From the IMG/VR virus record IMGVR_UViG_3300009081_000001, positions 23,060 through 87,059 of that record: DNA of 64,000 nt; one strand, given 5' to 3'. The DNA comes from a virus. Position numbers and translations under genes: made by a program. A model generated the notes under the pieces. The model was not told the DNA's origin and made no database searches. It saw only the letters and a program-made list of their open reading frames with translations. Shown in pieces: positions 1 through 61,900 of this stretch (its first letter is position 1; each line of letters starts with the position of its first letter).

Positions 1-1194
1 ACACCGCCAGGGGTCGAGTACCATCTTTGCTTTCGATGCACTCAAGTCCGTCCACTCTGGCAGCATGACCACAAGGACTGTAGCCTGGCCCAACACTTCC
101 TCATAGGTATGGCTGCATGGGGCCAGCTTATCATAGGTGATGGCACCTGTTATCTCTGCCAGCCTTTGCCCCTGTGATTCCTCTGTGACCGGCGTTCCAA
201 CCTTATACGCCAGTCCCAGGATACCTACCGTGTCCCTTGGCGTACACCACTTCTCTACCGTGTGCAGTAAGCGCATGAGTACGTCCCGATTCGTGCGGGT
301 AGTGGCATGAACCAGATAGGGCCAGTCCTCACTTCCAAGGGCAGAGATAAGAGCCCGTCCATCCCTCGGAAAGCATGGCCCCCCGTAGCCCACCCCCGAC
401 TTGAGATACTTCTTGCCAATGCGTGAGTCATGGCCGATGGCTTGTAGGATGGTATCGCTATTAGCACCTGGCACGATACCCGCAAGCTCCCCTACCATGT
501 TAGCATAGCTGATCTTCATGGTAACGTAGCAGTTCAGTGACAGCTTGGCAATCTCGGCGTTGACAAAGCTCATGCGGCGGATAGGTGGGGGAATGTACAC
601 TCGGGGGTTGTCGTCAATGTAGAAGCCTCCGTAGACTGCATGATAGAACATCTCCAGCATCTCCCCTGCCCTATCGTCACTCTCTCCAATGAGGATAAAG
701 TCAGGGTTCTCCATATCTCTCAGCACGGAGCCAAGGGCAACAAACTCTGGAGAGTAGCAGAGGCCGAAGTCAGAGCCACACTTCTTCTTGCTCAACCTCT
801 CCATCAGGTCTGCTATCTGCTGCGTATGCCCTGGCATGACCGTAGAGACGATGACTACAAGGTGATAGGCGTCCTTGTCTCTAAGAGCAATGGCGATGTT
901 CTCACAGGCGGCTCGAACGTAGTCCAGGGAGAACGCCCCGCTGTCATCCGATGGCGTAGGGACAAGGATAAAGGTGATCTCCGATTCCTTGACCGCTTTC
1001 TGTAGGTTCGTGGTCATGTGAAAGGGGTACTGTGCTACAAGCTCATTCACACCGGGCTCTGCTACATTTCCGTCGGAAATAGCCTTGATAGCTTGTGGAT
1101 TTACGTCAACTCCGATGACACTATGGCCCTTGCTCGATATCCAGGCTGCAAGCGCAGCGCCGAGCTTCCCTAGTCCAACTACGGATACATTCAC
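1..1194 (-). CDS. UDP-glucose/GDP-mannose dehydrogenase family protein (runs off the left edge)
   Basis: Not in the ORF track; my translation from GTG at 1194 gives MNVSVVGLGKLG (Rossmann), FILVPTP, VSTVMPG, CYSPEF, AEIAKLSLN, catalytic GYGGPCFPRD and LGLAYK. Confidence 0.9.
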   Translation of the reverse strand, partial: MNVSVVGLGKLGAALAAWISSKGHSVIGVDVNPQAIKAISDGNVAEPGVNELVAQYPFHMTTNLQKAVKESEITFILVPTPSDDSGAFSLDYVRAACENIAIALRDKDAYHLVVIVSTVMPGHTQQIADLMERLSKKKCGSDFGLCYSPEFVALGSVLRDMENPDFILIGESDDRAGEMLEMFYHAVYGGFYIDDNPRVYIPPPIRRMSFVNAEIAKLSLNCYVTMKISYANMVGELAGIVPGANSDTILQAIGHDSRIGKKYLKSGVGYGGPCFPRDGRALISALGSEDWPYLVHATTRTNRDVLMRLLHTVEKWCTPRDTVGILGLAYKVGTPVTEESQGQRLAEITGAITYDKLAPCSHTYEEVLGQATVLVVMLPEWTDLSASKAKMVLDPWRC

Positions 1195-1424
1195 TTGTTC
1201 CTCCTGCAAACTAGCCCGGCCATTCGATTGCCCTCAGTCATCCATATGTTTTGCGTACAGGTGAAGCCGGGCGGCACGGTGATCGCAATGCTGAACTCTG
1301 TTAGCTCCCTGGTATCCTGCTGTCTCAGCCAACGGTTGCCACAAATGCCACCCACGACGATGGCGATAACAAGCACAGCGGTCACACAGACGATGATGGC
1401 TACTTTTACTTCATTCCCCTTCAT
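1191..1424 (-). CDS. Small membrane protein
   Basis: N-terminal hydrophobic helix; stop overlaps the GTG of the next gene. Confidence 0.6.
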   Translation of the reverse strand: MKGNEVKVAIIVCVTAVLVIAIVVGGICGNRWLRQQDTRELTEFSIAITVPPGFTCTQNIWMTEGNRMAGLVCRRNK

Positions 1425-1427
1425 TCG

Positions 1428-2033
1428 TTACCTCCAATGCCTCAAGCTCTTGTCTACAAAGTCAACAGCCTCTTGTGTTACTTCTACACCAAGGTACTCC
1501 GCTATCTCTCGTACTGCCAACTCTGGACACTCTACAAGGTCATTGTAGTATACCCAATGGGCATCATCGGGCACGTTCTGCATCATGGCCTTGAGATACC
1601 GCAAAGAGATAGCTCTAGCCTCTTCCAGTGTGTGACCACCCCGGCGAAAGAGGCTATTGGCACACTGGTATGGGTCACGAAACACGGCGATAACCTTGAT
1701 GCTTCTACAATGAGTCTTCAACTCTGGCAAGAGAAAGCAAAAGCGCGGGTCTTTCATGGCCCATCGGGGATGCTTCTCAAACTCACGGATAAGACGAATG
1801 TAGCCAAGCGGATCTCGATTCCAGAACAGGTGATCGAGGTCGGGATTCTTCCAGTCTCCCCCCATCATGGCCGTGTGCAGCTCTGTGATACGCTTATCCT
1901 CGAAATAGCCCTTGGGGTTGTGGATAGAAGGGGGCCATAGGTCATCCCCCATGAAGAAGCCTAGATGATGGAGCACCCCTGCCACCGCACTTGTGCCGCC
2001 CCTGTTTAGCCCGACTACTGCTACACCTGTCAT
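1428..2033 (-). CDS. Sulfotransferase family protein
   Basis: GLNRGGTS PAPS-binding loop, NPKGYFED, KDPR, VFRDP..ANSL; start moved to MTGVAVV. Confidence 0.8.
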   Translation of the reverse strand: MTGVAVVGLNRGGTSAVAGVLHHLGFFMGDDLWPPSIHNPKGYFEDKRITELHTAMMGGDWKNPDLDHLFWNRDPLGYIRLIREFEKHPRWAMKDPRFCFLLPELKTHCRSIKVIAVFRDPYQCANSLFRRGGHTLEEARAISLRYLKAMMQNVPDDAHWVYYNDLVECPELAVREIAEYLGVEVTQEAVDFVDKSLRHWR

Positions 2034-2138
2034 GTTCCTGCCAGATAGAGAGTCAGTGCGAAGAGGGCTACAAGGGCTAGGGCAAATATCACCACTATAG
2101 ACGCCAGGCCGCATACCACACAGGCAAGTATTACCATT

Positions 2139-2951
2139 CTAGAATCCTCCGTCGTAAAACACAGGGCGCTTGCCTTTAATGTACTCCTGCTTGATGCGCT
2201 CAAAGTCGGCAACCGGGTCGCGTACAACGTCCATCTTCCACTGCGTATAGGCTGTGTTCCCTGGATCAATGTGGTCTATCTCAAAGCCGTGCAGAAAGAC
2301 ACTCTCATAGCCCAGGACGTTCATACGAACAGCGGCATAACTATCATCTAATCCGTAGCAGCCCATTTGCCACAAATAGCCAAACCGCCCATTGTCACCT
2401 ATCAGGCTTCCACGGTACGCTTGGACCGTGCCCATGATGTGATTGCAGCTTTCGACAACAATCCACCGCTGTCCTTTCTCGTGGGGCAGGAACCGCAACT
2501 TGCTCCTATACCACTGGTTAGTATGGTCGGGCCTTTCTTCCAGGTCTTTCCTCTTGAGGCCACAGATACCGATAGAGGGATCTCGCTCGAATACCTCTAC
2601 CATTCTATCTGCCCATCCCGACTCGTGCCACTCCACATCGTTGTCTATCTTGCACACCGCCTTGTACATAGGCTGATAGTACCGCCACAACTTATTGAGG
2701 GCATTGGCCGTCCCAATATTCGAGCCGTTGTATGAGACGTGACTGATTATGTCGCTATACTCGTCGTATAAAGCATGGGTAGCAGCACAGGAGCCATTGT
2801 CCGATACCATGAGGGTATGCTTGGTAAAGTCAACAGTCCTACGCATAGAGGCCAGCGTTCGCCGGGTAAGGGGGTGCCTGTTGTTATCCTCTAGATCGTG
2901 CGTGACCATAGTGAGTAAAATGATGCACCCCCTATCAAACCGAGATAGCAA
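2139..2951 (-). CDS. Glycosyltransferase family 2-like protein
   Basis: VSDNGS, NIGTANALN, DND (DxD) and DD motifs; exact start uncertain. Confidence 0.75.
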   Translation of the reverse strand: MLSRFDRGCIILLTMVTHDLEDNNRHPLTRRTLASMRRTVDFTKHTLMVSDNGSCAATHALYDEYSDIISHVSYNGSNIGTANALNKLWRYYQPMYKAVCKIDNDVEWHESGWADRMVEVFERDPSIGICGLKRKDLEERPDHTNQWYRSKLRFLPHEKGQRWIVVESCNHIMGTVQAYRGSLIGDNGRFGYLWQMGCYGLDDSYAAVRMNVLGYESVFLHGFEIDHIDPGNTAYTQWKMDVVRDPVADFERIKQEYIKGKRPVFYDGGF

Positions 2952-3112
2952 GGAATATGTCGTAGCCCCACATTTCCGTGATTAAGGCTAAGTCCTCGAC
3001 CTCAAGTTCACTGTGCATACCATGACCGTCTACAAGAACCTCCATATCCCCATGCGTTTCCTCTACGTCTTTCAGCCGTTCAATCAACTCGGATAGCTTC
3101 ACTTCTTGCCTC

Positions 3113-3538
3113 CTATGCTATTCGCTCAAGGCCGTCGGTATTGGTCTTGATGTGCCAGAGCCAACCAGGACCACCGGGAACGGGATCGCCACAGTACTCT
3201 TGCAACGGCCCCGAAACATAGTCATCGCCGTGCATCCACAATTCAACGTGGCCCCTAAGGGTACGAACACAGAGCGCATCGCCTTCAGGAATAAGGTTGC
3301 CGTTCTTCGTTTGGGGAAATATCTCAACCTCCCCCTTTCCAGTATCGGCCACCCGACAGTTGGCAAGCCAATGACCATTGAACCTCACATGACACCGCGA
3401 AGCCAATGGACTTCCACCCTCTACCCTCAAGGCGGGATAGACTACGCTCCTAGATTTGATAAGGCCCACTACCGGCACACAGGCAGCAGCGGCCCATGCA
3501 AGGCATCCACCAAGAAACCCTCTCCTACTTACACTCAC
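3113..3538 (-). CDS. Hypothetical protein with twin-arginine-like N-terminus
   Basis: SRRGFLGGCLAWAAAAC after a GTG start overlapping the upstream stop. Confidence 0.5.
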   Translation of the reverse strand: MSVSRRGFLGGCLAWAAAACVPVVGLIKSRSVVYPALRVEGGSPLASRCHVRFNGHWLANCRVADTGKGEVEIFPQTKNGNLIPEGDALCVRTLRGHVELWMHGDDYVSGPLQEYCGDPVPGGPGWLWHIKTNTDGLERIA

Positions 3539-3765
3539 TTCTTGCCCCCCACCCAGTTCACTCCATGATACCCCTTGCGCGTCTCTTCGATGAAACCGCC
3601 ATGAGCTGCTGCAGCCGTGCCCCAGTTCCAGTGTGCTGTAGTGAAACAGGGCTTGCACTCACCCCCACACTCTGGACACTCAAGGGGCTCATCCTGCCGC
3701 TCTATGCGTCTCAGCGCCTCTACCCTCTCCCCGCATCCCTGGCACTCATAGACGTATATCGGCAT
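3535..3765 (-). CDS. FmdB-family zinc-ribbon protein
   Basis: MPIYVYECQGCG...CPECGG pattern. Confidence 0.8.
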   Translation of the reverse strand: MPIYVYECQGCGERVEALRRIERQDEPLECPECGGECKPCFTTAHWNWGTAAAAHGGFIEETRKGYHGVNWVGGKK

Positions 3766-4217
3766 CAGTCATCCTCCCCATCGGAAAGCCCCAACTCCCG
3801 ACGCACTTCCTCATAGGGCCTCACACCCTCGTTGACTAGGGCAGCAACGCCGTCATTTCCGTCGGAAATAAGCCACACCTTCACGCCATGCAGGGGGATC
3901 CTTGGCGATGGAAGATACTTGAGGGCCAGCTCGTAGCTCAAATCAATGGCAAAGTTGATCTTGTCTAACCACGCCTGGTCCTTCCCCGCCCCACAATCCG
4001 CAACAAGAAAAGGGCCTACCAGTTCCCCGGTAGGCAGCTCCATTAGCACACTCTTGCCTATGTAGTTCCCCTGCAAGGCTACAAAGCCTAGCGCCCCATC
4101 TACTTGCTCCTGCTTTAGATGACGCCACTTGAGACGGTTTGCTACTACCCTATCCATTATCTCGGGATTGTAGGCTGTAGCCTTGCCCTCGTCTACCAGG
4201 GTGAGTATCTTGTTCAA
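3765..4217 (-). CDS. 3D/RlpA-like double-psi barrel protein (possible lytic transglycosylase-like)
   Basis: GKATAY ... FLVADCG ... AIDLS motif order typical of 3D/DPBB domains. Confidence 0.5.
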   Translation of the reverse strand: MNKILTLVDEGKATAYNPEIMDRVVANRLKWRHLKQEQVDGALGFVALQGNYIGKSVLMELPTGELVGPFLVADCGAGKDQAWLDKINFAIDLSYELALKYLPSPRIPLHGVKVWLISDGNDGVAALVNEGVRPYEEVRRELGLSDGEDD

Positions 4218-5015
4218 TCCTCTTCCTCCTTATACCCCAACGTCTCGGGCATAAAGTCACACGACCGAACATCATCAGCAAGCAAGTACAGCATGTACCT
4301 CTCCTTCCAGTCAGGATGCCTGATGATCGCCCGAATCATGTCCAACTCCTCACGCCCCAGTTGCAGATTCACCACCAGATCCGTCAACAGCCTCTCCATC
4401 ATCTTTTCCTCCCTTATTTGTTCGTTCAGTCCAAAGGTAATCCCACCACTGGTAAAACGAAGCACCGGGGTATCATCATATATAGAGATACCGTCAGTAT
4501 TCCCCGTCCAAGTACACCCATCCATTCACTTACCCTCCGTCGGAAATCTTACCGCACGTCTTCTTGTGTTCCGCAACCGTTCCTCAATCTGCCCCGCAAG
4601 CTCTACGGACCATAGCGTACCAGAACAGGCCCACAAGACCGCAAGCATCTCGTCTGGTCGCATGAAGATCGTGGTTGGTTCCTCTCTCTCGAAACGGAGA
4701 TAGACTGTATCTGGTTCAATGCCCTCCGCTATACCAGCACTAATTGTACAGTTCTCATAGGGCTGCTCCAGAATAGGGACGCACTTGGCAACACGCCCAT
4801 CTCCAAAATCAATCTCCATGTCACTCCCTATTTCCGTCGGAAATGTAAGCCTGATACGCTGCCTCTAACTCTTCTGGAAAACAGTCCACTTCCCAGGATT
4901 CACCCATCAGCCTCAACCAATTCCCGCTAGAACTACGCTCATACGTGGGCCACTCTTCCCTATCCGTCTCCACAACCCAACTCACATACGGACCATCTAC
5001 ACTAAGAACCTTCAT
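4214..5015 (-). other. Three short hypothetical genes (4214-4525, 4526-4819, 4821-5015)
   Basis: Abutting ORFs with purine-rich RBS. Confidence 0.65.
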
Positions 5016-5153
5016 TCCCTTCCCCTCCTTCTCTATTAGGGGATGAGGCCAGGCCGTACATCTGGCTCGCACCGCACTCCCAAGGCAGCACCCGGCGGTG
5101 TCTATGGTCATCAGTGTCTCGGACTCCCCACACCTCTCATCCCCATGAACACC

Positions 5154-5182
5154 ATTATACTACCATGAACACCTACTGTCAA
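5154..5182 (-). promoter_or_regulatory. sigma70 promoter of the leftward operon
   Basis: TTGACA-17-TATAAT, perfect consensus on the minus strand. Confidence 0.85.
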
Positions 5183-5283
5183 GATTCTCACTACGGTACA
5201 TATTTGCCGCTCATCCTATGAATAGATATAGGGAGATAGGGGGATGGATGCTAGTGGGTATACCCCCCCCTACCCTATCGTAG

Positions 5284-5508
5284 ACAGAGCATGAGCCCCC
5301 TAGCTACAGGAGGCGCTAAGAGAAAGGGTTAAAAGCCTGTAGCGGCAGTAATGGGGAACCCCTCTGCACTGGCGAGTGTGGAGCTGTAGCATGGAGCGTG
5401 CTACAGGTCGATAGGCGGAGATACCTACTCAAAAGGTAGGAGGGCATAGCAGCACATGCCTACTCTCATGCTCTGTACTGGTACTGGTGCAGGTGCCACC
5501 ACTGCACC
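5284..5508. other. Non-coding multi-hairpin element (candidate ncRNA or origin/packaging signal)
   Basis: 12-bp perfect inverted repeat 5284-5295/5465-5476 enclosing four hairpins, plus a further hairpin at 5486-5508. Confidence 0.5.
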
Positions 5509-5776
5509 TTCTTCATGGGCAGGATCAGGTGATGCAAGATGATAGCCTTGCTACAGTTCGAGTCTGTACTTGCCTGCATAGCCTATACCTATAAGGGGGT
5601 GCTATGTCTCTTTTCCGTCGGAAACGCAAGCCTGACCCCAGGCAGGAGCTACTTACTACCTATGCACACCAGGAGTATGTAGCCAGGGTGAGCGTGTGTG
5701 CGCATGGTAACTGTGAGACGTGCTCCTATAAGGCGTCTTGCACAAGGTATCACTCCAAGAAAGGAAGGGTTGTATA

Positions 5777-5822
5777 GCACAACAGTTCGAGGATTGACAA
5801 CCGTTCAGCAGTATGGTACGAT
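5777..5822 (+). promoter_or_regulatory. sigma70 promoter with upstream SOS-box-like site
   Basis: GCAC-N4-GTTC (5777-5788), TTGACA 5794-5799, 17 bp, TG-n-TACGAT. Confidence 0.7.
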
Positions 5823-5868
5823 AGTCTATGAAGGTGAACCCTACCTTAGTGGGAGAAAGGTTCTAGAG

Positions 5869-6162
5869 ATGGATTTCTCTCAACCCAGTGGCAAGTTTGG
5901 CTACGGTCGGATGGTGGTGGACTATACCCGCTTTGGCAAGTGCGTCAATGCGATTGTGAGGGTGGGGGAGCTGTCCCAACACCTGTTTGGTGTTGATGAC
6001 GTGGTTATAGGCGGCATCTACGAGCTAGACCACTTCCTCACTCTTGGAGAGCCCGCCGAGCTGCTTGGCTTCAAGCCCAAGTTCGCTGATATGTACGAGA
6101 TGGCCGTGTGGGATGAGTCCCATCGAGTGACCACCGTACAGTATGATAGCCTGCGAGACTAA
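5869..6162 (+). CDS. Hypothetical protein
   Basis: ATG after RBS downstream of the promoter (MDFSQP...). Confidence 0.6.
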   Translation: MDFSQPSGKFGYGRMVVDYTRFGKCVNAIVRVGELSQHLFGVDDVVIGGIYELDHFLTLGEPAELLGFKPKFADMYEMAVWDESHRVTTVQYDSLRD

Positions 6163-6212
6163 ATTGAAAGAGTGATGGGAGAGGCCCATCACTAACCGTT
6201 TCCGTCGGAAAT

Positions 6213-6244
6213 AGAGCCCCTATCTCTAGGGGCTCTTTCTTTTC
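6213..6244 (+). terminator. Rho-independent terminator
   Basis: AGAGCCCC-loop-GGGGCTCT followed by TTCTTTT. Confidence 0.75.
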
Positions 6245-6369
6245 CCCTACAACTAAATAACCCATAGCCCTGATGCGCCTTAATCGTGCATCAGGGCTAT
6301 GGGTTGTGAAGGTTGTGCCCTGCCAAGGGCGTTGCCTACCTCTTTAGGTAGGTATCTCTGAAAGGAGAT

Positions 6370-7347
6370 ATGAACATGGCGAAGAAGGTACAGCAGAGCA
6401 CGGTCGAGCTGGTCTATGAGGCGCTTGTCCTCAAGGGCTGGCACGTTGACGACGTTGAGTTGGACCGTGGCGCGATCACGGTTACTGCAATGTCGCCTGA
6501 TGGGGAGCAGTTGATTGACACGTTCAAGGCAACTGGCACCCGCAAGTGGCTGGATGGGGTAATGGACGTGAACCCCGTTGTGGCAGAGCCCGAGCTGTCG
6601 GAAGAGGAGTGGGAAGCCCTGTATGGCAACGTGACCGATAACGATGTTTGCCTTGCGTTCCTTGACGAAATCCCCGCCCTGGTCACAAGCAAGGAAGTCG
6701 CAGAGGCCGTGGTGCGGGTGCTGGATGAGATATTGGAACCCGCCGCCGTGGAAGCGGCACCTGAAACCCCGAAGGGAGAGGATGAGATGAAAGTGTACGC
6801 CTGTGAGAAGTGCGGTGAGATCCTGCCCGAGCCTGCCCGGTTCTGTGAGCCCCACGGTCGCATGGAGCTGGCCCGCCAGGAAGAGGAAGTCAAGGCGTTC
6901 ATCGAACACGAGGAATCGCTGCTTACGTCCTACCTGAACGTGCGCGAGGACTATATCGAGGAACACCCGTTCCTTGGTGTGGTCTTTGAGTCGATGACCT
7001 TCCGCCGGTTCCTGTGCATCCGGTACGAGACGCCACAGAGCGATGGTAGCACTGTCACCCGCGACCGCAAGCTGCTGGTGTCCCACGTCTACCAGGCCAA
7101 GAGCACGGATGGGATCTGTGTGGTAGGGTATGATACCTACCGCGAGGAAGTGCGCACGTTCCGCATCGACCGCATGAGGGGTGCCTACTTGGGTGAGTGT
7201 GCGCCCGAGCCCACGCATGGCAAGCCTGTGCTCTATCCTGCGTCCTACGATCTCCGCAAGGCAGTGCCCCAGGTGATGCGCAACCCCGAGAAGTACATCG
7301 GTAAGGGGTGGTCAACGAAGCCCCTGCCTGTGGTCTTGATGCAGTAG
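6370..7347 (+). CDS. Zinc-ribbon plus WYL-domain protein
   Basis: CEKCG..FCEPHG; C-terminal VVGYDTYREEVRTFRIDRM (WYL signature R-x-FR-x-DR). Confidence 0.7.
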   Translation: MNMAKKVQQSTVELVYEALVLKGWHVDDVELDRGAITVTAMSPDGEQLIDTFKATGTRKWLDGVMDVNPVVAEPELSEEEWEALYGNVTDNDVCLAFLDEIPALVTSKEVAEAVVRVLDEILEPAAVEAAPETPKGEDEMKVYACEKCGEILPEPARFCEPHGRMELARQEEEVKAFIEHEESLLTSYLNVREDYIEEHPFLGVVFESMTFRRFLCIRYETPQSDGSTVTRDRKLLVSHVYQAKSTDGICVVGYDTYREEVRTFRIDRMRGAYLGECAPEPTHGKPVLYPASYDLRKAVPQVMRNPEKYIGKGWSTKPLPVVLMQ

Positions 7348-7420
7348 CGTTTCCGTCGGAAATAGCCCCTTGCTCTCCTTGTGGGCAAGGGGCATTGTAA
7401 TATCTATAAGGAGAGGAACG

Positions 7421-7735
7421 ATGACCGTCAAGAGTGTCGTGTTCGCGTTGGTTCTGCTGGCCGTGCTGTTCGCGCTCGTGCCCACGTTTGCCGTGGCCGA
7501 GCCCGCCATCGAGGCTCCTGCATCCGAAGCCCCAGTTCTCGCCAGGACGGTGTTCTTCACGCCGTACCTGTCCATCTACCACAACCGCTACAATGCCAAT
7601 GGGGCGTACATCGGCAAGGCGTTGGGTGGTGGACTGTGCACTCCTACTCGTGGTAGCTGGTGCAAGGCCACGAACGCCTACGGTAAGGTGTTCTTTGTGA
7701 AGTGGTGCAACTATGCCAGGTGTGTGCGCTGGTGA
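7421..7735 (+). CDS. Small secreted protein
   Basis: Signal-peptide-like N-terminus ending AVA-E; Cys-containing C-terminus. Confidence 0.6.
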   Translation: MTVKSVVFALVLLAVLFALVPTFAVAEPAIEAPASEAPVLARTVFFTPYLSIYHNRYNANGAYIGKALGGGLCTPTRGSWCKATNAYGKVFFVKWCNYARCVRW

Positions 7736-7757
7736 TTGAGAGTCAAGCCCCATTCTA

Positions 7758-7820
7758 GAACATCAGTTTGGGGCTTGACAAGTGTTCAGGAGTATGATAC
7801 AATGGACCGTAGTTCAGAAC
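7758..7820 (+). promoter_or_regulatory. sigma70 promoter with SOS-box-like site and GTTCAGAAC element
   Basis: GAAC-N4-GTTT 7758-7769, TTGACA 7775-7780, 17 bp, TG-n-TACAAT 7798-7803, GTTCAGAAC 7812-7820. Confidence 0.8.
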
Positions 7821-7830
7821 GATAGGGAGG

Positions 7831-8290: not shown

Positions 8291-8307
8291 ATTTCCGACG
8301 GAAATGG

Positions 8308-8622: not shown

Positions 8623-8633
8623 GTCTATGCCCT

Positions 8634-9158: not shown

Positions 9159-9221
9159 GGCATATAAAGCCTCATTGTCGTCATGTGTAGAAGTATATCA
9201 CACTTAGGGAGGAAAGACAAG

Positions 9222-11035: not shown

Positions 11036-11108
11036 CAACGTTGGCTGAAACTGTTGCGGAATAGCCACGTCCCTGTGGTATAATAGGCTCGAAAGGAGAG
11101 AGCGAACG

Positions 11109-11954: not shown

Positions 11955-11977
11955 CATCCATTTCCGTCGGAAACGTA

Positions 11978-12011: not shown

Positions 12012-12029
12012 CCCCCTAAAGGAGAGAGC

Positions 12030-52154: not shown

Positions 52155-55100
52155 TATGAATACTTGAACTCCCCATAGTTGTCCGTGCCCCACACACCCG
52201 CCGTCTCCGGTGCCACCTGTGACCGTAGCCGTACCGCCATACCAGCCTTGATGCTCGTAGCGTTCCGTGCAAGGTTCATATCGTAGTCGTTGACGATGTA
52301 GCCCACGCCATTCACCGACACTTCATCCTCTGGCTCAACCGCCGGGTCTGGTGCATAGAGAATGACCATCCCACCCGTTGCCTGCTCCCTCGCAAGGACA
52401 GTAAGCCGCCTCGCTTCCTGTAGCGTCTCTGCCTCTGTCACCACAACGGGATTGTCGCTCTGCCTAAACCGGAGGCCGTACATCGCCGTCTCCGGCTCCA
52501 GGTAGTACGTCCTTACCTCTGCCCCGGTGAGGCCCATAAGAGAGGGAACGGGATTGACGTTCTCTCCCCTCTGGATCACAGGAGTCTCCCACGCACCTAG
52601 CCCATCCCTCACAGGATACTCACCAATAGATACCGTGCCGTCTGCTCTCTCCACCAGTTTGACGTGCCTGCCACGTAGCAGCCTGGATATAGCAGAATTG
52701 GCATCTTCCTCTGCGCCCCATACGAACGCATCCTGCATGGTGCCAAACTCTTGCAGGGTATAGGTGCCGGTGCCGTTCTCCGCACAGTAGCCATAGCCCG
52801 GTGTTTCAACATGCACAAAGCAACCGAGATAGTGTTGGTCTGCATACACGTACACATTTCCGTCGGAAATGATCACGTTGATCGTGGGCTCGTCGGATAC
52901 GTCGATGGTCACAAGGTTGGGGTATTTCCTCAAGAGAGAGTAGGCCCCGCCGTCCACGCAGTAGTAGAGATAATGGTAAGAGTCGTCTACTTCTACCTTC
53001 CAGCCGGTGTAGTCTGCTATGGTAGAGGCATGGAAGATGACGCTTGGAACCGCCTCGCCACTGATAGACACAGAGATATCTTTGTACTGTACCGTATCGC
53101 CAATGGCACTCATGGCCCCGGCAAAGACAGACGTGCGCCCCACTCCCGAGAGGGCAAGCATATCATTCACAATATCATCTTGGGTCCAGGCGGGCTTACC
53201 ATCACACCAGGATAGGTCCGAGAATAGAACATAGGGGCTACCCTTGGTAGTGAACAGGCCCCACTCTGTTCCCACCGATGGGATCTCACTCCAGGCAGTG
53301 TCAACCGTGAGGGCAATGAAGTTGCCAGCCTCATCCTCGACCACGGTAAAGTCGTTGACTTGTCGCCAGTCATTATTGCACCAGCAGTACTGCCCCAGGA
53401 CAGCAGCGGTAAAGTCCTTTGTAGAGTCTTGTATCTGCTGTGCAAAGGCTTTCGTGACCGTACCGCTATCCTCTGCAGCAGTGAAGTTGGCCCTGTCCAA
53501 AACAGACAGGCCAATGTGATAGGGCAATGGGGGTGAATCACTCTCCCCGATAGTGGCATAGCTGATATCGGCGTCGGCGCTGGAGAAGTCCTCTGTCTCT
53601 ATGTTCTGGAAGTAACAGCGCACCAGGCCAGGGCGCAGATCCAGATAGAGGGAGTACCACGTATCTACCACGGCAGCAAAGGCAGACACCGCCTTGTTGA
53701 TACGCACCCCCCTGATGATGCGGTCAATCACCAGCTTGCGGGTGCCAGCGTCATTGTAGATACCGGCCCGCCAGTAGTTGTCTATATCCTCATAGAAGAA
53801 GACAATGAAAGCACCCTCTACCGAGGTCTTGAATTTGAAGTGGGTAGTACAGGTGAGCCAGGGGCTTGAGATGGACCGGGGTACAACACACAGCCCCTCT
53901 TCTGTGGCGCTAACCGGCTCCCCCTTCATGCACCATCGGGCACGGTCAGCAGGCTTGGTACACGTCCATGTACCCTGCACTTGAGCGATAGAATACCGCT
54001 GCTCCCCGGTGTCGCTGTTGAAGTTGGTGTACCAGGCAGTGGGCGACTCGTACAGCTTGCCAGCGGGCGGCTGATATGCACCATCCCCGGTGAGCCAATA
54101 AAGAGGGCCACGCGCAGAGATACGGTAGCGGTCAGCCTGGTAGGATTCCTCTCGCTGCTTCTGGCCGAGATACCCGGTAAAGATGGTATCACTGTCTCCC
54201 CCCGAGATCCCTAGCTGAACCGTAAGCTCGTTGTCAGCTCGTAGTAATGTACTTGTAGAGAGAGCATCCCCCACGTTTAGCAGTGATGACTCTACCGTTG
54301 TTGCGCTGCCTGCCCCCGGTGCCGTGATGCGCCAGGCATCTGCCTCTGTGATCGTCTTCTTGAGAGCAGCATTGTCGTAGCCAAGTTTATATGACGCTGC
54401 CCCACGGTAGACAAGAGCATTGCCAGCAACGTAGCAGTAAGCCTCATCTGCTACGTACAAGAGATTCCCGGTGCAGTAGTGAGAGCCCACAAAGCCCTCA
54501 TCCCGCCAGTATCGCCCATCTGCCGTAGAGGATAGACCAACATGGTAAGCATAGGGCACACCGTCAGAGCCTTCAAGCGCCCGATAGGTCACACACCAGA
54601 CACGGCTATTGATGGTCGTCAGGCCGGTGGGCAATACCCTATAGGTTGCATCGTCAGGACCACCACCTAGCATCAAGTATGGCTGCGAGTAGCTATCCAT
54701 TGCGGGGTTGTAGGTCATCGAGTGTGCAGAGCCATGCTTGGCAAGGTTCAGCACCAGAATATAGGTGCTGCCTACCTTTGCTGCATCGGAGAATAGAGCG
54801 TCTTGGGCTTCCAAGTCCTCAAAGTCCCACGCCACCTTTGTCGAGGTAGTTAGCCACTCAGCGCCATTCCAGTATATGTATTTCACCCATAGATAATGTG
54901 TCTTAAAGCCAACAACGAAGGCTTCACTAACAGTTACGGGATGGATGGCAACAGCATCAAAGCCATAAGCACTGATGTTCGCCCCGCTGCCTGTCTTGTT
55001 GCTCCAGCCCCACGCTCCGGTGCCGGTATTATATGACAGTGTTTCGCGGTAGACGGCATTGTTGTTCGAGTACCAGACATAGAAAGCCCTGGTCGTGGTG

Positions 55101-55489
55101 CCACCAGCACTGAACACCCCTACTCTGCAATAGTCATCGGGGGTTGTCTCGCTGTTCGTTATATCGGCATAGGCCCAATCAGCAGCGTCGGCCCCATCGT
55201 TCGTGATACTCGCAAAGTAGTCTGCCGCGTCTCCCCACACAGCGGTGTTCAGGAGTCTCAGCTTCCATGCCCCGTTGACGCAGCTATCCCCCCAAACGTA
55301 CCGCCCCTCTTTGTCATCGCTGGCATAGGTATCAGCATCAATCACATCGTAGGTGTTGTACACCAGGGGCAGCGGCTCTCCATTTCCGTCGGAAAACTGC
55401 AAGCGCAACTGGCGCAACGTCGCGGATAGAGTTGGCGTTACTTGTCCAGAAAGATATGCAGTTCTAACCGCTGGCGTAGTGGTTTTCAC
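52154..55489 (-). CDS. Large minor tail / baseplate-hub-like protein
   Basis: 1111 aa beta-rich protein, second gene after the tape-measure-position gene. Confidence 0.6.
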   Translation of the reverse strand: MKTTTPAVRTAYLSGQVTPTLSATLRQLRLQFSDGNGEPLPLVYNTYDVIDADTYASDDKEGRYVWGDSCVNGAWKLRLLNTAVWGDAADYFASITNDGADAADWAYADITNSETTPDDYCRVGVFSAGGTTTRAFYVWYSNNNAVYRETLSYNTGTGAWGWSNKTGSGANISAYGFDAVAIHPVTVSEAFVVGFKTHYLWVKYIYWNGAEWLTTSTKVAWDFEDLEAQDALFSDAAKVGSTYILVLNLAKHGSAHSMTYNPAMDSYSQPYLMLGGGPDDATYRVLPTGLTTINSRVWCVTYRALEGSDGVPYAYHVGLSSTADGRYWRDEGFVGSHYCTGNLLYVADEAYCYVAGNALVYRGAASYKLGYDNAALKKTITEADAWRITAPGAGSATTVESSLLNVGDALSTSTLLRADNELTVQLGISGGDSDTIFTGYLGQKQREESYQADRYRISARGPLYWLTGDGAYQPPAGKLYESPTAWYTNFNSDTGEQRYSIAQVQGTWTCTKPADRARWCMKGEPVSATEEGLCVVPRSISSPWLTCTTHFKFKTSVEGAFIVFFYEDIDNYWRAGIYNDAGTRKLVIDRIIRGVRINKAVSAFAAVVDTWYSLYLDLRPGLVRCYFQNIETEDFSSADADISYATIGESDSPPLPYHIGLSVLDRANFTAAEDSGTVTKAFAQQIQDSTKDFTAAVLGQYCWCNNDWRQVNDFTVVEDEAGNFIALTVDTAWSEIPSVGTEWGLFTTKGSPYVLFSDLSWCDGKPAWTQDDIVNDMLALSGVGRTSVFAGAMSAIGDTVQYKDISVSISGEAVPSVIFHASTIADYTGWKVEVDDSYHYLYYCVDGGAYSLLRKYPNLVTIDVSDEPTINVIISDGNVYVYADQHYLGCFVHVETPGYGYCAENGTGTYTLQEFGTMQDAFVWGAEEDANSAISRLLRGRHVKLVERADGTVSIGEYPVRDGLGAWETPVIQRGENVNPVPSLMGLTGAEVRTYYLEPETAMYGLRFRQSDNPVVVTEAETLQEARRLTVLAREQATGGMVILYAPDPAVEPEDEVSVNGVGYIVNDYDMNLARNATSIKAGMAVRLRSQVAPETAGVWGTDNYGEFKYS

Positions 55490-55908
55490 TTTTCCAACAG
55501 CCTCAACACCTGGACACGGTTGTTGCCTACCGGGTCATACTCTACTCGCGGATCCCAGTCGCTCACGTTTTCCGCATTCCAGAAAGCAGAGTCTTCAAAG
55601 GACTTGGCCTTGAGGTCTGTAGACTCCATCGCACTCTTTAGGTGAGCGTCTGTGCCATAGGTGTACGTCACTTCGTTGTAGACTATGGTTCCACTGGCGT
55701 CGTGGTCGAGCCAGATGCGTCCGGCAAACTCCCTCTTGTTGGCCGGTGCCCTCACCACAAGCAGAGTGCCAGCCGGGTTACGCGAGATGTCCTTGATGTA
55801 GGATAGACGCCCGCCCTCGTAGCCCTCAAGCAGCGTCACAAAGGCATACTTGTTGGCGTCACTGGCCCAGGTCAAGAGTAGATACGCTCGTGCAAACTTG
55901 TCGCTCAT
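55486..55908 (-). CDS. Distal-tail-position protein
   Basis: 140 aa directly after the tape-measure-position gene (ATGA overlap). Confidence 0.5.
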   Translation of the reverse strand: MSDKFARAYLLLTWASDANKYAFVTLLEGYEGGRLSYIKDISRNPAGTLLVVRAPANKREFAGRIWLDHDASGTIVYNEVTYTYGTDAHLKSAMESTDLKAKSFEDSAFWNAENVSDWDPRVEYDPVGNNRVQVLRLLEK

Positions 55909-58900
55909 TTCCAGGGCACCCCCCAACTACCCGCCTGTTTCCGTCGGAAATCGGCACTCTCCTGCACCGTCTCAATGTGTGCATCAAAGGTTTTGCCATC
56001 GTCCAGCACCAGTTTCATAGAGGCACCCTGCAATCCTGCAAAAAGGGCAGCAGCAAGGTCGTTGCTCGATGCTTGCTTGTTGGGATACGGAGCATTGTAC
56101 CCAGGTATCTCGGGCGGTGTCTCGCTCCAGGTCTGCTCATCTGCCGCCGTTGGCCCACTCCCCAACTTGGCTAGTATCTCGTCAATGAATGCCATCACTC
56201 GGTCATAGAGATCGCCACCCGCTGAGTACTGCTTGATCTGCCACGCCATGTACTTGGCGTGTGCATCCTCGATACCCTCTTGCAGCTTCATGCCCTTCTC
56301 TTGCAGGGCCAGGCCCTCAAGCTGAAAGTCGTGCTGCTTCTGCTGGTAGGGGAATACCACTTCTTCGTAGTACTTCTTCTGCCTCTGCAACTCTTCCAAC
56401 TGGTACTGCTGCTGCCTATCTTCCCATGCCTCTTGCAGCTTGCGCCTCTCATCCTCAAGCGCCCATATAGCAGTGTAGTCTTTCTTCCTCTGCTCGATCT
56501 GCTCCTTCTCCAGAGCATACCGCTCCAGAATGTGGCGCTCCTGCATCCTAAACTGCATCTCTTGTAGCTGAGTAGTGCGCTCGAAATGCTCTTTCTGCAA
56601 GCTAAACTTCTGGCGCTCCCACTCCATGACTTGCTTGGCGCGTTCCTCTTCTACGCCCCGCCTGTCCTCGGTGCGAGAGTACATCTCTTCCTGGTACTCC
56701 CTGCGGCGGAGTAGGCCCTGCTTCTCCCTGCCAGTGGATAGCCTGATAGAACGCTCCAGCTCGTCTTGCTGGTACTCGTGCTGGAACCCGGCCATCTGGC
56801 GGTTGTAGGCCATATCCTGCATCTGCCAGCCCTGCTGAGTCTCCATCTGGCCGAACTGGACACCCATCTGAACGCGCTGAAACTGTATGCCTTCCTGCCA
56901 GGTACGCCGGGACATACCCAGGTTCTCAAGGCTCTGCCGGGTAGACAGCTCAAGCCCGCGCTCTTGGAACTCGATACCCTTCATAGTCTGCTGGCGCTGT
57001 AGGTCGGTCATCTGATGGGTGATAGCCCTAATGGCCTTGGTGAACTCCATCAGGTCTTGTTGGATCTGGATCTGGCCTGTCATGCCAAAGCCCCATCCAA
57101 CAGAGGATTGACCGCCCCACTCCCCGGTGCCCATCTGAAACTGGTTTTGTGTCTGCTGGTATTCCCAGGATGCTTGTGTCTGCCGTCGGGATAGGCCAAG
57201 CTGCTGCCTGTTCAGAGCCCTGCGTTCCATCTGCCCATAAGAGTAGCCGTACTGGTCCATGAGTGCCGGGCCAGTAGGTGCCCCTGGTCCCTCTTCGTAG
57301 GCATTGAACAGCGCAGAGAGGCCAGAGCCAAGGCCGTATCCACCGGCCATCATGTTGTACCCTTGCTGGCTCATGCCAAACTGGGTAAGGCTCTGCATCT
57401 TCATGTACTGCTCTGCGGATAGCTGTGCAGAACCATAAACGGGCTGGTCATAGACCGGCATACCAGGCAAGCCCCCCACGTCACCCGGCGTTGCGGGCCT
57501 GGCGCTAAAGCCTGCCGTTGACGGCTCCAACATCTTGGCAAAGGCAGAAGAGAATCCAGCCGGTACACCCAAGGTCTGCCCGATCCCGCCAAGGCCCATC
57601 CGTTCCCTGGCAGCAAGGTTGAGCTGTGTGGTAGAGACTCCCGAGCCTAGCCAATCCGCATACTGCTCGACCATGCCAAGCCCCGGCGTGATACCCGCTT
57701 GCCCACCCGCGCTACCTAGCAACTGTGCAGCCATCATCCACTGCGCCTGCTCTGCTGGCTGTGCCTGTGTAGGCAACTCTGTAAGGAATGGCTGGATACC
57801 CTTCCCTGGTGCGATACCTAGATAGCCCGCAAACCTCTCAATCGAACTGGTATAGGCCCCCGCCTGTCCCAGTTGGGCCATAGGTGCAAGACGGTTGATA
57901 GCTTGCTGCGCTTGCCCGCCGCTGATCTGCTCCGGTGTATAGCCACCAAGAGACAAGAGCACCCCTAGCTCTCTGGCCTGTGCCGGGTCAAGGTTCAGCT
58001 TGTCCAGGTTCTCTAGGGTGATAGATGCCGTGTCGATCTGGAATTGTGCCGACTGCTTGTAGGCTGCAAGCCCTGCCTGGACCTCTTTACCGTAGCCCCC
58101 CTTCTCCTGATCCCCGGTGATAAGAGCCTCTACACCACCCTCGCTGAACAACTGCCTGAACCCATAGCCAACCCTGGACCACAGAGACGGCTTCTCCCTC
58201 TCGCCTGCCTGAATCTCTGCGTACTCCCTTTGTAGAGAGGGTAAGTCGCTGGCTGCATAGGACTGCCCGGCCATAGCGCCTGTTGCCACCAGTCCACCCA
58301 CACCAAGAGCCAGGGGGGCCGCTGCTGCCGTTACCGTTGCTCCAAAGCCCACGCCACCTGCCGTTAGAAGACTACCCGCCGTTGTCGCGGCGATACCCGT
58401 AGTTAGTCCAGCACCAAGCCCTGAGAGCAAGGGACCACCTACGCCACCAAGCGCCTGCCCCATCTGGAATGTAGGCTCAACCCCCATCATCCCCAGGAAT
58501 CCTGCCCTCTGCTGCAGGGCAGATGTACCAAGCCCCATCTGGAAAGAGCGTTGCGCGGCCTGGTACTGCATCATCTGCCCCATGCTGCCCTGCATCACGT
58601 CCTCATAGGACTGACCATAGGCAAGGCCGAACTGCATCCCGGCCATCTCGTAGGGCTCTGCCGCCTGTTCCCAACCCCCTACCACTCCCTTGGTGTAGCG
58701 GCTAACAACAGCCATCCTGATAGCAGCGCCACCGATGGAGAACTCTGATAGGAAGTCACCCATCAGGCCCCTGGCAGCACGGCCCCGGCCACCAGTAGCC
58801 GCCCCTCCCGCTGCTTGCAACTCAAGCTCTGTTCTCGCTTGTTGTGTATCTATGGCACCCAAGCGCCCCAGGATGCCACCACCTTCTCCCATTGCCATCG

Positions 58901-61900
58901 CGGGTTGAGCCATCCCCGCAATCTTCGTGAGTGCCGCAAGCTGCTGCTGTTGGGGCTTGTCCAACGGCCCCGCTTTCCCTGCTGCCTCTAGTCCCTCAAG
59001 CGTTCCCCTATGCCCACGTAACACTCCCCGCGCCCAGGTTCGTGCCTCTTGTGCGGTTGGCTCTAGTGCCTCCACTATCCCCTTGAGTGCAGGAGCAAAC
59101 CTCTTGGCATACTCCTGTAGTTGTGGGTCATCGGCAAGTATCCTGATAGCTTTGTGTGCCCTGGTGAGGTCGTCACCCATAAGGCGCACACCCTCCGACA
59201 ACTGTTGGGTAAGGTTCCCTATGTCCTGTCCTGCTGCCCCAGGCAATCCTTCTGCCATACGGCGGCTCGTTGCCGGTCCAATACCCCGCATGGCTTCAAG
59301 CTGTCGAACGTCGGTGATCTGCTTGCCATACAGACCTTCCATGTTCCTCTTGGTCACGGCTCGGTAGGCTGTCTTTGGTCCCACCCCCTGGATAGTCTGC
59401 AATGATTCCTCTGTCGCCATCTCATTGAACCACTGCATAGCACCTGGCCCTACCTCGGGGAATGGGGTGATCGCTGCCTCAAATACAGTACTAGTATCAC
59501 GCAGCCGCATGGCCTGATATGCTGGCTGCAATCCCTGCATCAGCATTTCCTCGGCCTCTGCCATCTGTGGCGCAAAGAAACTAGACTTGTCCTCGTAGTT
59601 AAGCAAGGTGCCCATACGTTTGGTGACTTGGCTCAGTCGCCTCATGGCTGCACCCTGTTGCTTAGTGAGGGCACCCCGCCCACCAACGATCTCTTTCTGG
59701 TTCGCAAGAAAGACATTGGCCTCTTGCATTAACAGGCCAAGCTCCTCGGAATGCCTCTGTCGAAAGACGGGACGCTTGAACTGCGTAGCCTGCGTGATAT
59801 GCTGCGTGATATTCTGAATTTGCTGTACTGGCTGTTGGCTAGGCGCACGTCCACCAGAGGGTGGTACTGGCGGTGCTGCTGTCGTAACCGGCGGAGAGGG
59901 CGGCTTGCGTCCACCGGGCGGCGTAGACGTTGGCGGTGCCATACCAGCACCCGGAACATCTGATGTGCCACCGCCTGGATGAGCCCGCCGATAACGATCT
60001 ATGGTGTCTTTTAGGGCTGGTTCCTCTTCATCGGACGAAGCGATGAATGAGGCCAGCGCCGTTTCATATTCTTCCTTTGTAGGAGTACCGCGATTTCCGA
60101 CGGAAACAGGAGACAAGACCTGTTGGGTTTGTAGTCGCTCGGGCAAGTCCCAAGGTAGTTCGCGTCCAGATGCGCGAACGGACTCCACCCACTCCTCGAT
60201 GTCGCCACCCTTTGCCATCATGCGAATGGCGGCATCTTGTTGCTCTCGCCCACCAAGAAGATGCTCTGCTACCTCACGCGGAACACCCTTTTCCTGAAAC
60301 GACTGCCATACATCTATCCCTGCTTCTTCCGCACTCTTCTTAACACTTTTGGCCCACTGCCCGCCATAGAAGGTTCCCCAACTGGATTCCTGTGCGAATG
60401 CCTGCGCTGCATCTGCCGGGTTGCCGCCGTAAGCCTTGATAAGCTCTCGGAACACCATCGGCGCGGCACTTAACCCACCCTTCTTTGCTCGGGCAAGGGC
60501 AGAGATAATCTGCTTCCTCTTCCCAAGGGGAGCTAGGCCAGCCGCTGCCTCTGGCGCAGTCATTCGGGCCTGTCCCTTCGGCACACTCACAAGGCCCGCT
60601 GCCACCTGTGTAGCAGCCCACATGACGCCCGGTAGGTTCCTTATGGTTGTGGGACGACCATAGGGATCTTCGCCTTGCTTGGCATACATGCGGTGTGTGC
60701 CCCCCTTGGCCGTGATGGTTGCCAGATCCAGTGCTGCTAATACCTGTTCTGGTGGTGCCCCTGGTCGCTGTGCGGGACCATAGGCCAACTGCAATAGCTT
60801 CTCTGCCGATGCTACCGCTGCCGGGTCTGGTGCCGTTGCCGCCATACGTTGGGGAATGTTGTACACTCGCCCGATGTTGCCCACGTTCTCGGCGCGTTCC
60901 TTTGTCTTAGCAAGCATCTCCTCATCTGAAACAACACGACCAACAGCACCCCTCTTGACCATCTCAATAGCTTCTTGTCGAGAGGGTGATGGTGCTCCTA
61001 CGCCTACATACTCATCCATGATGTTGGCAGCGCCCTGCTCGACGGCCCGCCGCGAAAGAGCCTTGATGGTTCCAGCAGATAACTCTTTGCCACTGGCATC
61101 GAAGTACTTACCATCAATCTTGATTGCCTGGCCTGTCTTCAAGTACCAGTCAATGTCACCGTCGGCGTCGCCCTGGCTTGCCTGCTGGATCTGCGGGCTA
61201 ACAGTTAGGCGCTCCACGTTCATCTTGCGGGCAAGGCCCTCTTCCATGCCGATGTTCACGACTTGCGCCCCAGGATCGTAGCTTGCCTTACCCATCGTAG
61301 GATAGCGAACCACTTGCCCAGTCTCGCCCTCGGGAGAACGTGGATTCAGAACTTCATTTGGGGCAAGGGCCTCGCTAACTGCAACCTTCGCTCCTGTCAC
61401 ATATTCTCTACCTGGCTCAGTACCCATCGCCCGCCGTGTCCACTTCTTACTCTCGGCAAGCTGCCTTTGTATATCTCTCGCGGCGACGATCTGCTCTTTG
61501 GGTATCTCTTCCCCACTCATAACCCGCTGCGCCAATCCGAAGATAGCGGTGTGGTACTTCGATACCTCTTCTCCTTGCTCCGCGCCCGTTGCTGACGTGT
61601 ATTTCAGGGATTCACCCGGCGGTATGATTAACTGCTCTCCCCCACCCTCAAACATGATGGGGGTCTTGCTTAACTCTTCCCCTTGGGCCATGAGCGTTTT
61701 AAGCTGTGCAACAGAGGCACCACCCGCCGCTTGTTGCAACAACTCATTGTAGGGCATCCCATACCCAAGCCGTTCCATGAACTGTCGTGCTACCATGCGC
61801 TGAGGGATAGCCTCGGTCACACCCGCTCCGGTCATCAAGCGCACCGCTGACTCCGCTTCTGCAAGTAGGGGCAGCATTCGCCCACCCAACTCGGAACCAC

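Follow-up and report, generated by a model that had tools for sequence, protein, structure and literature searches.

Exact, evenly spaced palindromes along the genome of an uncultured temperate phage, and a small-terminase-like candidate for the protein that reads them

Dyad repeats scattered in dozens of near-invariant copies have been described in cultured phages, with the Cluster O mycobacteriophage Corndog carrying 34 exact and three one-off copies of the 17-bp repeat TGTTCGG-NNN-CCGAACA (PMC4351075). The arms of the Cluster O repeat are invariant and its centre is free, copies lie both between and within genes, and a dimeric binding protein was proposed by the authors (PMC4351075). An 18-bp inverted repeat of similar kind is present in Cluster EG Microbacterium phages (PMC9224216). 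Here we analyse a 64,000-nt stretch of viral DNA (the window), bases 23060–87059 of the 87,059-bp IMG/VR record IMGVR_UViG_3300009081_000001 (G0), in which the 13-bp palindrome TTTCCGWCGGAAA recurs over the whole length. The phenomenon itself is already known, dispersed dyad repeats having been published for Cluster O and EG phages; what the present case adds is evidence, from comparison of relatives, for selection and for the spacing, grounds for excluding a reader of the ParB type, and one particular protein as candidate reader. The function of the dispersed letter-perfect palindromes of cultured phages has gone unexplained for a decade, and for the G0 group a testable candidate reader can now be named.

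Comparable sites are known from other systems. The stoperators of Cluster A/CA actinobacteriophages (L5 gp71 type) comprise ~25–35 near-identical sites of 13–14 bp, with relatives differing in consensus (PMC13313380), the KorB OB core of the IncP-1 plasmid RK2, TTTAGCGGCTAAA, is a 6+1+6 palindrome (PMC11790492), and the Noc site, NBS, is ATTTCCCGGGAAAT (PMC7383237).

G0 is a temperate tailed phage, uncultured. Its record is 100% complete, and the ends (1–103 and 86957–87059) overlap exactly over 103 bp, which makes G0 a closed assembly, circular or circularly permuted, of 86,956 unique bases. A large serine integrase is encoded at 36760–38178 (coordinates are those of the window unless stated), together with a DnaB-like helicase, a DnaD/O-like initiator, a single-stranded DNA-binding protein (SSB), portal, large terminase (TerL, genome 14184–15956) and a major capsid gene, with the majority of G0 proteins lacking a family match. 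Genes were called by a simple codon-usage picker of open reading frames (ORFs) and are uncurated; distances to starts are approximate. Relatives, from metagenomes and IMG/VR, were reached via portal homologues, and include G1 (74,951 bp, portal 55% identical to that of G0, record 86% complete), a further relative G2, the close relatives L024, L157 and L163 (nucleotide identity ~75%), and the distant L192, L193 and L185 (portal identity just 22–25%). Single-protein searches of viral and genome collections found no close relatives, no isolated phage has a nucleotide match to G0, the portal and TerL proteins gave zero tblastn matches among 50,697 phage records, and a portal profile found no prophage relative in 185,579 bacterial species genomes.

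An exact search of the window finds 37 copies of TTTCCGWCGGAAA, from 1067–1079 through 60094–60106, compared with none in 100 dinucleotide-preserving shuffles of the window. The first-pass annotation of this DNA had counted at least 37 copies by eye, and the exact search returns just that number at agreeing coordinates; its estimates of a ~1.7-kb mean spacing and a largest gap of ~4.1 kb correspond to measured values of ~1.6–1.7 kb and 4156 bp (55938 to 60094). Every one of the peptides that it read from copies inside genes (ISDGN, ISVGN, VSDGN, FPTE, FPSE and FRRK) was found, and its remark that copies sit by stop codons and ribosome-binding sites is borne out by 11 sites within 10 nt past a stop and 16 within 30 nt before a start. 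Exact and one-mismatch counts over the entire genome, which it had also proposed, come to 46 and 0, with three two-mismatch copies besides. The favoured form is the 15-mer A-TTTCCGWCGGAAA-T, both flanks being present at 31 of the 46 sites. The same annotation had raised the possibility of an assembly artefact; contigs built independently (Logan) from one public freshwater-sediment run, the sole public run with G0 DNA, reproduce window positions 1–20000 with zero differences, and represent a second assembly of probably the same sample rather than independent reads; no RNA run was listed as containing this sequence. Scans with the 15-mer gave single chance-level matches only in the viral collection, the true relative L024 excepted, and single chance-level matches only among the matches listed for bacterial genomes, where no word-rich genome was listed.

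The palindrome of G0 resembles the Cluster O repeats closely, with dozens of copies, fixed arms, a free centre and almost no near-variants (34 exact plus three in Corndog; 46 plus none in G0), a mixture of sites in gaps, at gene ends and in gene interiors, no orientation, no consistent link to promoters, and a word private to the phage group. In descriptive terms (more than 30 copies, invariant arms, free centre, private word) it is thus a repeat of the Cluster O type, however it is related neither in sequence nor through its phage: the G0 word is built as 6+1+6 and that of Corndog as 7+3+7, and the G0 lineage is unrelated, uncultured and without a protein match to isolated phages. Even spacing, purifying selection, a spacer and word that vary by lineage, and a candidate reader gene that itself carries a site are shown for the G0 group and go beyond what is described for Cluster O.

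The evidence for selection comes from relatives at two distances. Four of four orthologous sites compared in L024, L157 and L163 are exact in their arms, with the 60-nt flanks 62–82% identical and the centre base alone differing, in one pair; at that divergence a neutral 13-mer would survive in ~2% of cases. Arms kept exact despite diverged flanks indicate purifying selection on the arms, with the centre base left free. G1 holds 14 exact copies of the G0 13-mer against ~0.002 expected. The centre base on the sense strand is A at 30 and T at 15 sites in G0, and A at six and T at eight in G1, with the ~2:1 excess of A in G0 arising because coding copies prefer Asp over Val; as an orientation signal the centre was rejected, since it does not track gene direction. 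Outside full sites, the inner cores CGWCG (131 compared with 126 expected) and CCGWCGG (11 compared with nine) and the half-sites TTTCCG and CGGAAA all occur at the expectation of an order-3 Markov model, with no enrichment of the half-sites. The whole dyad is therefore the unit under selection, a result that speaks against a short core for restriction or methylation and also against binding by a monomer. Folded as RNA, the word gives a hairpin of −2.7 kcal/mol (z-score −1.5), no better than shuffles; no compensatory arm variants were found within a genome, and in relatives the versions of even length keep their symmetry across the centre (GACGTC, CCATGG). These three observations together indicate that the site is read as duplex DNA.

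The placement of the sites is similarly non-random. In G0, 20 of the 46 sites are not fully within called genes, compared with a non-coding share of 15% of the DNA (p = 3.6e-6), and these typically occupy the narrow space from a stop codon to the following ribosome-binding site. The remaining 26 are intragenic, as are 10 of the 14 in G1, where sites lie mostly within long structural genes at ~5-kb intervals. Gaps between sites are more even than random, with a coefficient of variation of 0.70 in G0 (random ~0.95, p = 0.005; p = 0.0014 against a null preserving the coding/non-coding split) and of 0.39 in G1 (random ~0.95, p = 0.00045), and long genes of 3–8 kb carry one or two sites apiece. Where copies are coding, their frames are biased, 25 of 36 reading xS(D/V)Gx, nine FP(T/S)E and two FRRK (p = 1e-5). 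Alignment with orthologues shows that some coding copies were made by substitution without an indel, for example in the L162 portal and in the FPTE copy of a conserved 223-aa (amino-acid) structural-block protein (genome 3772–4443), with others lying in variable linkers or in small insertions of 4, 7, 9 or 10 aa. The VSDGN copy in the linker of another structural-block protein (genome 8057–8941) has kept its position between G0 and G1. Copies made by substitution, or placed in linkers and insertions, are the expected outcome if selection favours a site at that place. Arms that stay exact between diverged flanks, evenly spaced sites and the choice of the least harmful frame add up to DNA features that are themselves selected.

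Judged from these comparisons, the palindromes are likely to be the sites of a symmetric DNA-binding protein of the phage. The first-pass annotation had similarly suggested sites of a dimeric protein marking the genome; symmetry, selection, even spacing and lack of orientation agree with that suggestion, with the likely role shifting here from silencing or segregation toward packaging recognition.

The word itself varies between relatives, whose versions either keep the arms around a spacer of 2 or 4 bases or are GGTCCCCATGGGGACC. L162 and L167 carry TTTCCGTGGAAA, L164 carries TTTCCGGCGGAAA, L165 carries TTTCCGGCGGAAA plus the 14-mer TTTCCGGGCGGAAA, and L192 and L193 carry TTTCCGACGTCGGAAA, with similar forms in L185; the TTTCCG/CGGAAA arms accompany the structural and packaging module into the three distant relatives. 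G2 carries GGTCCCCATGGGGACC plus the symmetric variant GGTTCCCATGGGAACC, with counts of the variant sites too small to gauge hairpin covariation. A palindrome of 10 bp or longer recurs three or more times in 6 of 25 related loci, compared with 1 of 25 unrelated viral and 2 of 103 bacterial control loci. G0 and G1 differ in nearly all of their early genes, and most sites turn over between the two genomes, with the site at the gene of a 174-aa helix-turn-helix (HTH) protein persisting.

This 174-aa protein, encoded at 8634–9158 on the minus strand and consisting of an HTH and a long helix in the manner of a small terminase (TerS), is the best candidate for the reader. Outside the virion genes, G0 and G1 have in common SSB, a Sak4-like ATPase, a Cas4-like nuclease, a phosphoesterase-like protein, a 236-aa protein and the 174-aa protein, the last being the only HTH protein common to G0, G1, G2 and L165. 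The first-pass annotation had listed the HTH gene at 8634 among possible binders; it remains the strongest of these, resembling a small terminase more than a plain regulator. An AlphaFold2 (AF2) model (mean predicted local distance difference test score, pLDDT, 73) places an N-terminal three-helix HTH before an extended helical hairpin and a tail that is disordered but conserved, and this predicted layout is that of TerS. The family comprises 95 cluster representatives in a full HMMER search, with members matching homeodomain/psq/transposase-type HTH families in Pfam, and "terminase small subunit" is the only recurrent named PHROG function within it (phrog_4102 in seven members, phrog_2538 in six, phrog_24579 in two and phrog_1482 in one). 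In four of four genomes the large terminase and portal are encoded downstream of this gene and on its strand, with a distance to the terminase of just 1 kb in L165, and no other small-terminase candidate conserved across G0, G1, G2 and L165 was found.

The association between this gene and the palindrome recurs in each lineage compared. In G0 the palindrome at 8656–8668, the proposed primary site, falls within the final codons of the gene, 22 nt short of the stop and read as AISDGNV, and in G1 a palindrome lies 20 nt past the stop. The 14-bp variant of L165 likewise occupies the last codons of the homologue, where it is read as FPGGN and not xSDGN, so that the DNA word and not the peptide is conserved. 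In eight more members of the family a conserved EEVEVE motif is followed at the corresponding place by a terminal xSDGN or xSGGN, which implies the same arrangement of gene and site. The densest cluster of G2, three variant sites, lies 0.3–0.7 kb downstream of its homologue. The site at the gene changes along with the private word of each phage, and the HTH region is alike in carriers of TTTCCG-type words (S/T-x-x-Y/F-Y-x-A/S-L/I) and different in the G2 type (NTWRTA); this link between recognition helix and palindrome, drawn from four genomes and the peptide tails, is suggestive only. In headful-packaging phages of the P22, SPP1 and P1 types, pac sites lie inside the terS genes. The arrangement described here is similar in that a cognate site stands in or next to the gene of a small HTH protein upstream of the large terminase, however a classical pac site is single-copy and is not a 13-bp perfect palindrome, compared with the 46 copies of G0.

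We tentatively propose that the palindromes are dispersed cognate sites of the TerS-like 174-aa protein, pac-like but multi-copy, and that they serve packaging; binding by this protein, its identity as TerS, and the packaging purpose are each inferred. The sites would be double-stranded recognition sequences for a symmetric, phage-encoded protein, the reader being the 174-aa HTH and coiled-coil protein that is the lineage's TerS candidate, with the primary site at the reader's own gene as pac sites are in terS genes. Selection would hold secondary copies at roughly even intervals of 2–5 kb along the entire chromosome, placing them between genes wherever space allows and in the coding sequence of tolerant protein loops elsewhere. 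The reader could then locate and occupy phage DNA anywhere, so that the DNA would bear a mark of "self", most likely used for the recognition or initiation of DNA packaging. The stronger form of this proposal, in which a TerS recognition site has been multiplied into dozens of evenly spaced copies as a dense packaging or "self" mark absent from the host genome, is possible but doubtful. If true, it would constitute a third way of choosing DNA for packaging, beside a single pac or cos site and sequence-independent headful initiation, and might explain repeats of the Cluster O type. Confirmation of the reader would reveal the means by which a phage marks its entire chromosome, be it for packaging or for silencing, and would provide a compact orthogonal pair of protein and site.

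Several points weigh against a TerS reader. To our knowledge pac sites are single-copy and usually asymmetric, and we know of no phage with dozens of them; headful packaging, moreover, has no need of dispersed pac sites. The 174-aa query itself has no Pfam, PHROG or PDB family match, and the TerS matches of its near relatives are weak (E ~4e-3), the TerS link resting on other members of the family. Foldseek returned nothing at E ≤ 0.001, with weak rows for TetR-like HTH proteins and 2ao9 (a Bacillus cereus prophage protein), VIA-align returned generic helical matches only (Z ≤ 6), and PDB profile searches were insignificant. In G0 the gene stands 15 kb from TerL, as a lone minus-strand gene among plus-strand early genes in the manner of a repressor, and L165 mixes 1-bp and 2-bp spacers, which is awkward for a rigid dimer. 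Furthermore, the early region of G0 has a much higher site density, with a site at nearly every small-gene junction in 8292–10694, a pattern that looks more like gene regulation.

The main rival to the TerS reading is a genome-wide set of operators or roadblocks, at which a dimeric repressor, the 174-aa protein or another, would silence or insulate prophage transcription. This is unlikely on the present evidence, however it accounts for several observations. G0 is temperate, with a serine integrase and an XRE repressor with divergent promoters, the 16 sites shortly before starts and 11 right past stops are suitably placed, the early small-gene region is dense in sites, the candidate gene is alone on the opposite strand among the early genes, and related phages bear different palindromes, as immunity specificities would. 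Precedents exist in the stoperators (PMC13313380) and in the KorB OB core TTTAGCGGCTAAA, a palindrome of 13 bp built around a centre base (PMC11790492). Like stoperators, the G0 sites are many, near-identical and often located in short intergenic gaps of a temperate phage (20 of 46 outside genes, with an integrase); stoperators, however, are asymmetric, as already pointed out in the first-pass annotation, and oriented with transcription, and the G0 sites are symmetric, unoriented and half inside genes. Overlap with promoters was considered and rejected, with the sites missing the strong sigma-70-like promoters. The XRE/Cro-CI-type HTH gene at 13995–14441(−), with back-to-back near-consensus sigma-70 promoters at 14448–14420(−) and 14460–14488(+), forms an immunity switch of the classical divergent type; no palindrome occurs at this switch (14420–14488), at which one of the possible binders listed in the first-pass annotation, the XRE protein (13995), is encoded. 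Additionally, G0 and G1 have the same 13-mer despite deep divergence and almost no common early genes, which is atypical of immunity determinants, the sites of G1 lie in its long structural genes at wide intervals, and no integrase appears among 25 of 28 Pfam families listed for 54 G1 genes, a list that leaves out structural genes and comes from a record 86% complete.

A protein that organises the chromosome, whether a host factor or a ParB/Noc-like clamp that coats, bridges or tethers phage DNA to the membrane so as to compact, localise or shield it, is improbable. The sites of the KorB, Noc-NBS and ParB-parS systems are scattered across a mobile genome every few kb, some far from promoters or in genes, and are read by a dimeric HTH protein. 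RK2 has 12 OB sites. The even spacing and whole-genome coverage in G0 are reminiscent of Noc-NBS and KorB-OB, with the OB core TTTAGC-G-GCTAAA also built as 6+1+6 with TTT...AAA ends and the arms ATTTCC/GGAAAT held in common with NBS (PMC7383237); a novel binder could also hide among the many phage proteins of no recognisable family. In contrast to those systems, G0, G1 and G2 encode no ParB-family protein: six-frame searches with hidden Markov models for PF02195 (ParB_N) and PF17762 (HTH_ParB) gave no match at E ≤ 1 in the three genomes, control genomes matching, and ParB-type domains are absent from Pfam scans of G0 and G1 proteins. The usual analogy with ParB and KorB does not therefore apply to G0, and sliding dependent on CTP cannot be assumed. 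Membership of the ParB/Noc/KorB group was accordingly rejected, the dispersed palindromic site of 13–16 bp being a shared feature, and the parallel with Noc drawn in the first-pass annotation holds at the level of the DNA word and fails at that of the protein, in G0 as in two relatives. A host factor is additionally disfavoured by the covariation of the site with a phage gene; in the bacterial 15-mer scan the matches listed were all single and at chance level.

A modifying or cutting enzyme as the reader, such as the orphan adenine methyltransferase encoded at 17088–18377 or a site-specific nickase, would fit the all-or-none exactness of the copies (46 exact, none one-off) and the presence of a site inside the methyltransferase gene itself (17401–17413, read SISVGNG), however this is very improbable. 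A fully specified 13-bp word far exceeds the target length of a methyltransferase, the inner cores show neither avoidance nor enrichment away from full sites, a symmetric nickase would give double-strand breaks, and no orthologue of the methyltransferase was detected by phmmer in G1 or G2, with G1 having other DNA methylases. The enzyme, on the plus strand, belongs to the gamma class of N6-adenine DNA methyltransferases and has an uncharacterised N-terminal region of ~200 aa.

The two weakest explanations are both highly improbable. A hairpin in RNA or single-stranded DNA, acting as a signal for processing, stability, translation or priming, would suit the many copies between a stop codon and the next Shine-Dalgarno sequence and the retention of the arms around spacers of 1, 2 or 4 bases in relatives, as a stem closed by loops of differing length would do; six base pairs cannot, however, close on a loop of 1 nt, the 5–6-bp stem with a 3-nt loop has the shuffle-like stability given above, the lack of compensatory stem variants and the symmetric even-length centres indicate that sequence and not pairing is conserved, and the G1 sites are mostly inside ORFs, antisense orientation included. 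Small mobile palindromes, or "linker" sequences promoting modular recombination, would explain the enrichment at gene boundaries of the mosaic early region and find a parallel in the recombination between repeats inferred for Cluster O phages (PMC4351075), with a Sak4-like ATPase, SSB and Cas4-like nuclease at hand in G0, but coding copies that arose by point substitution or in insertions of four different sizes do not correspond to one fixed unit of the kind expected from a repetitive extragenic palindrome (REP) or miniature inverted-repeat transposable element (MITE), purifying selection has preserved the orthologous positions checked, neither the even spacing nor the copies in conserved structural genes are explained, and 13 bp is very short for homologous exchange.

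Along the window, the palindrome first occurs at 1067–1079 within a minus-strand gene (AISDGNV), then at 3856–3868 within 3765–4217(−) (LISDGND), at 4831–4843 in the last codons of 4821–5111(−), 11 nt upstream of the start of 4526–4819(−), and at 5612–5624 in the divergent intergenic region between the minus and plus gene blocks. The intergenic copy at 6199–6211 lies 36 nt past a stop and 2 nt before an intrinsic terminator (6213–6236(+)), and the copy at 11961–11973 lies 6 nt past a stop and 4 nt before another (11977–12003(+)). These are the two places in the window where a palindrome directly precedes an intrinsic terminator, both of them strong and built on a common stem, AGAGCCCC...GGGGCTCT. 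The palindrome at 7350–7362 follows the stop of the gene at 6370–7347(+) by 2 nt and precedes the next start by 7 nt; this gene, which encodes a 325-aa WYL-domain protein with a weak homologue in G2 and none in G1, is therefore flanked by the sites at 6199 and 7350. Around the candidate reader gene, 8292–8304 is located 1 nt past the stop of 7973–8290(+) and 330 nt downstream of the TerS-like gene, 9752–9764 stands between a stop, at 3 nt, and the following ribosome-binding site and start, at 17 nt, 10171–10183 is intergenic with a start 22 nt on, 10399–10411 is at the 3' end of 10206–10442(+) with the next start 20 nt on, and 10682–10694 is at the 3' end of 10432–10719(+) (AISDGNE).

Further sites are found at 13078–13090, 2 nt past the stop of 12875–13075(+), at 16683–16695 (intergenic, start 17 nt on), at 19180–19192 within 18982–19227(+) (GFPTETV), at 20857–20869 (intergenic, start 12 nt on), at 24109–24121, adjoining the stop of 23377–24108 with the next start 15 nt on, at 27101–27113 (intergenic, start 9 nt on), at 27525–27537, 1 nt past a stop with the next start 16 nt on, at 30910–30922, at the gene junction after the DnaB-like helicase with a start 9 nt on, and at 33471–33483, with a start 10 nt on. 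The copy at 36123–36135 lies at the 3' end of 35943–36170 (SFPSEIE) with the next start 27 nt on, and that at 36737–36749 is 4 nt past a stop, with the serine-integrase start 10 nt on. Beyond the integrase, 38578–38590 is 2 nt past the stop of 38366–38575, a pair 66 bp apart lies within 39921–40616(+), comprising 40363–40375 (IISVGNE) and 40429–40441 (ALSDGNE), 41647–41659 is at the called 5' end of 41640–41978(+), and 44989–45001 is intergenic where plus and minus gene blocks converge. In the minus-strand block that follows, 45853–45865 within 45216–46142(−) (AVSVGKL) was made by substitution, without an indel relative to the G1 orthologue, 46827–46839 is at the called 5' end of 46147–46857(−), 50368–50380 lies within the gene of a 1381-aa tail-region protein (FVSDGNL), and a 1111-aa gene contains both 52857–52869 (IISDGNV) and 55383–55395 (QFSDGNG), the latter in a 7-aa insertion relative to G1. 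The last two copies belong to the gene of a 2638-aa virion-module protein (55905–63821(−)), with 55938–55950 in its last codons (FRRK frame), 11 nt upstream of the next start, and 60094–60106 in its middle (PVSVGNR). Pfam recognises helix-hairpin-helix motifs only in this protein (residues ~1468–1525), it has no sequence match in the PDB, and its reading as a fused RNA polymerase is not supported.

Other genes were noted in the course of the analysis. A 732-aa protein of G1 (open frame 762 aa; L206:1719–3917, G001:C1:61719–63917) matches the Pfam RdRP family PF05183 above cut-off (E = 4e-10) and is a YonO/QDE-1-type two-barrel RNA polymerase whose gene contains one palindrome; no PF05183 match is present in G0. 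The major capsid proteins of G1 (469 aa) and G2 (475 aa) each match two G0 ORFs ~2.3 kb apart, L155:4443–5507 and L155:7785–8024 (genome coordinates, before the window), which indicates that the capsid gene of G0 is interrupted. The late/structural block (L155/L156 and window 1–5111(−)) additionally encodes a UDP-glucose dehydrogenase, an NAD epimerase/dehydratase, GT2 and GT1 glycosyltransferases, FkbM and other methyltransferases, a sulfotransferase and a GDSL lipase, with its sugar genes resembling the virion-glycosylation sets of some actinobacteriophages, Cluster O included. The Sak4-like ATPase (AAA_24, 43364–44440(+)), the Cas4-like nuclease (31348–31926(+); phrog_1706, E = 7.5e-4) and SSB (13330–13689(+)), all three of which are also present in G1, possibly constitute a recombination module.

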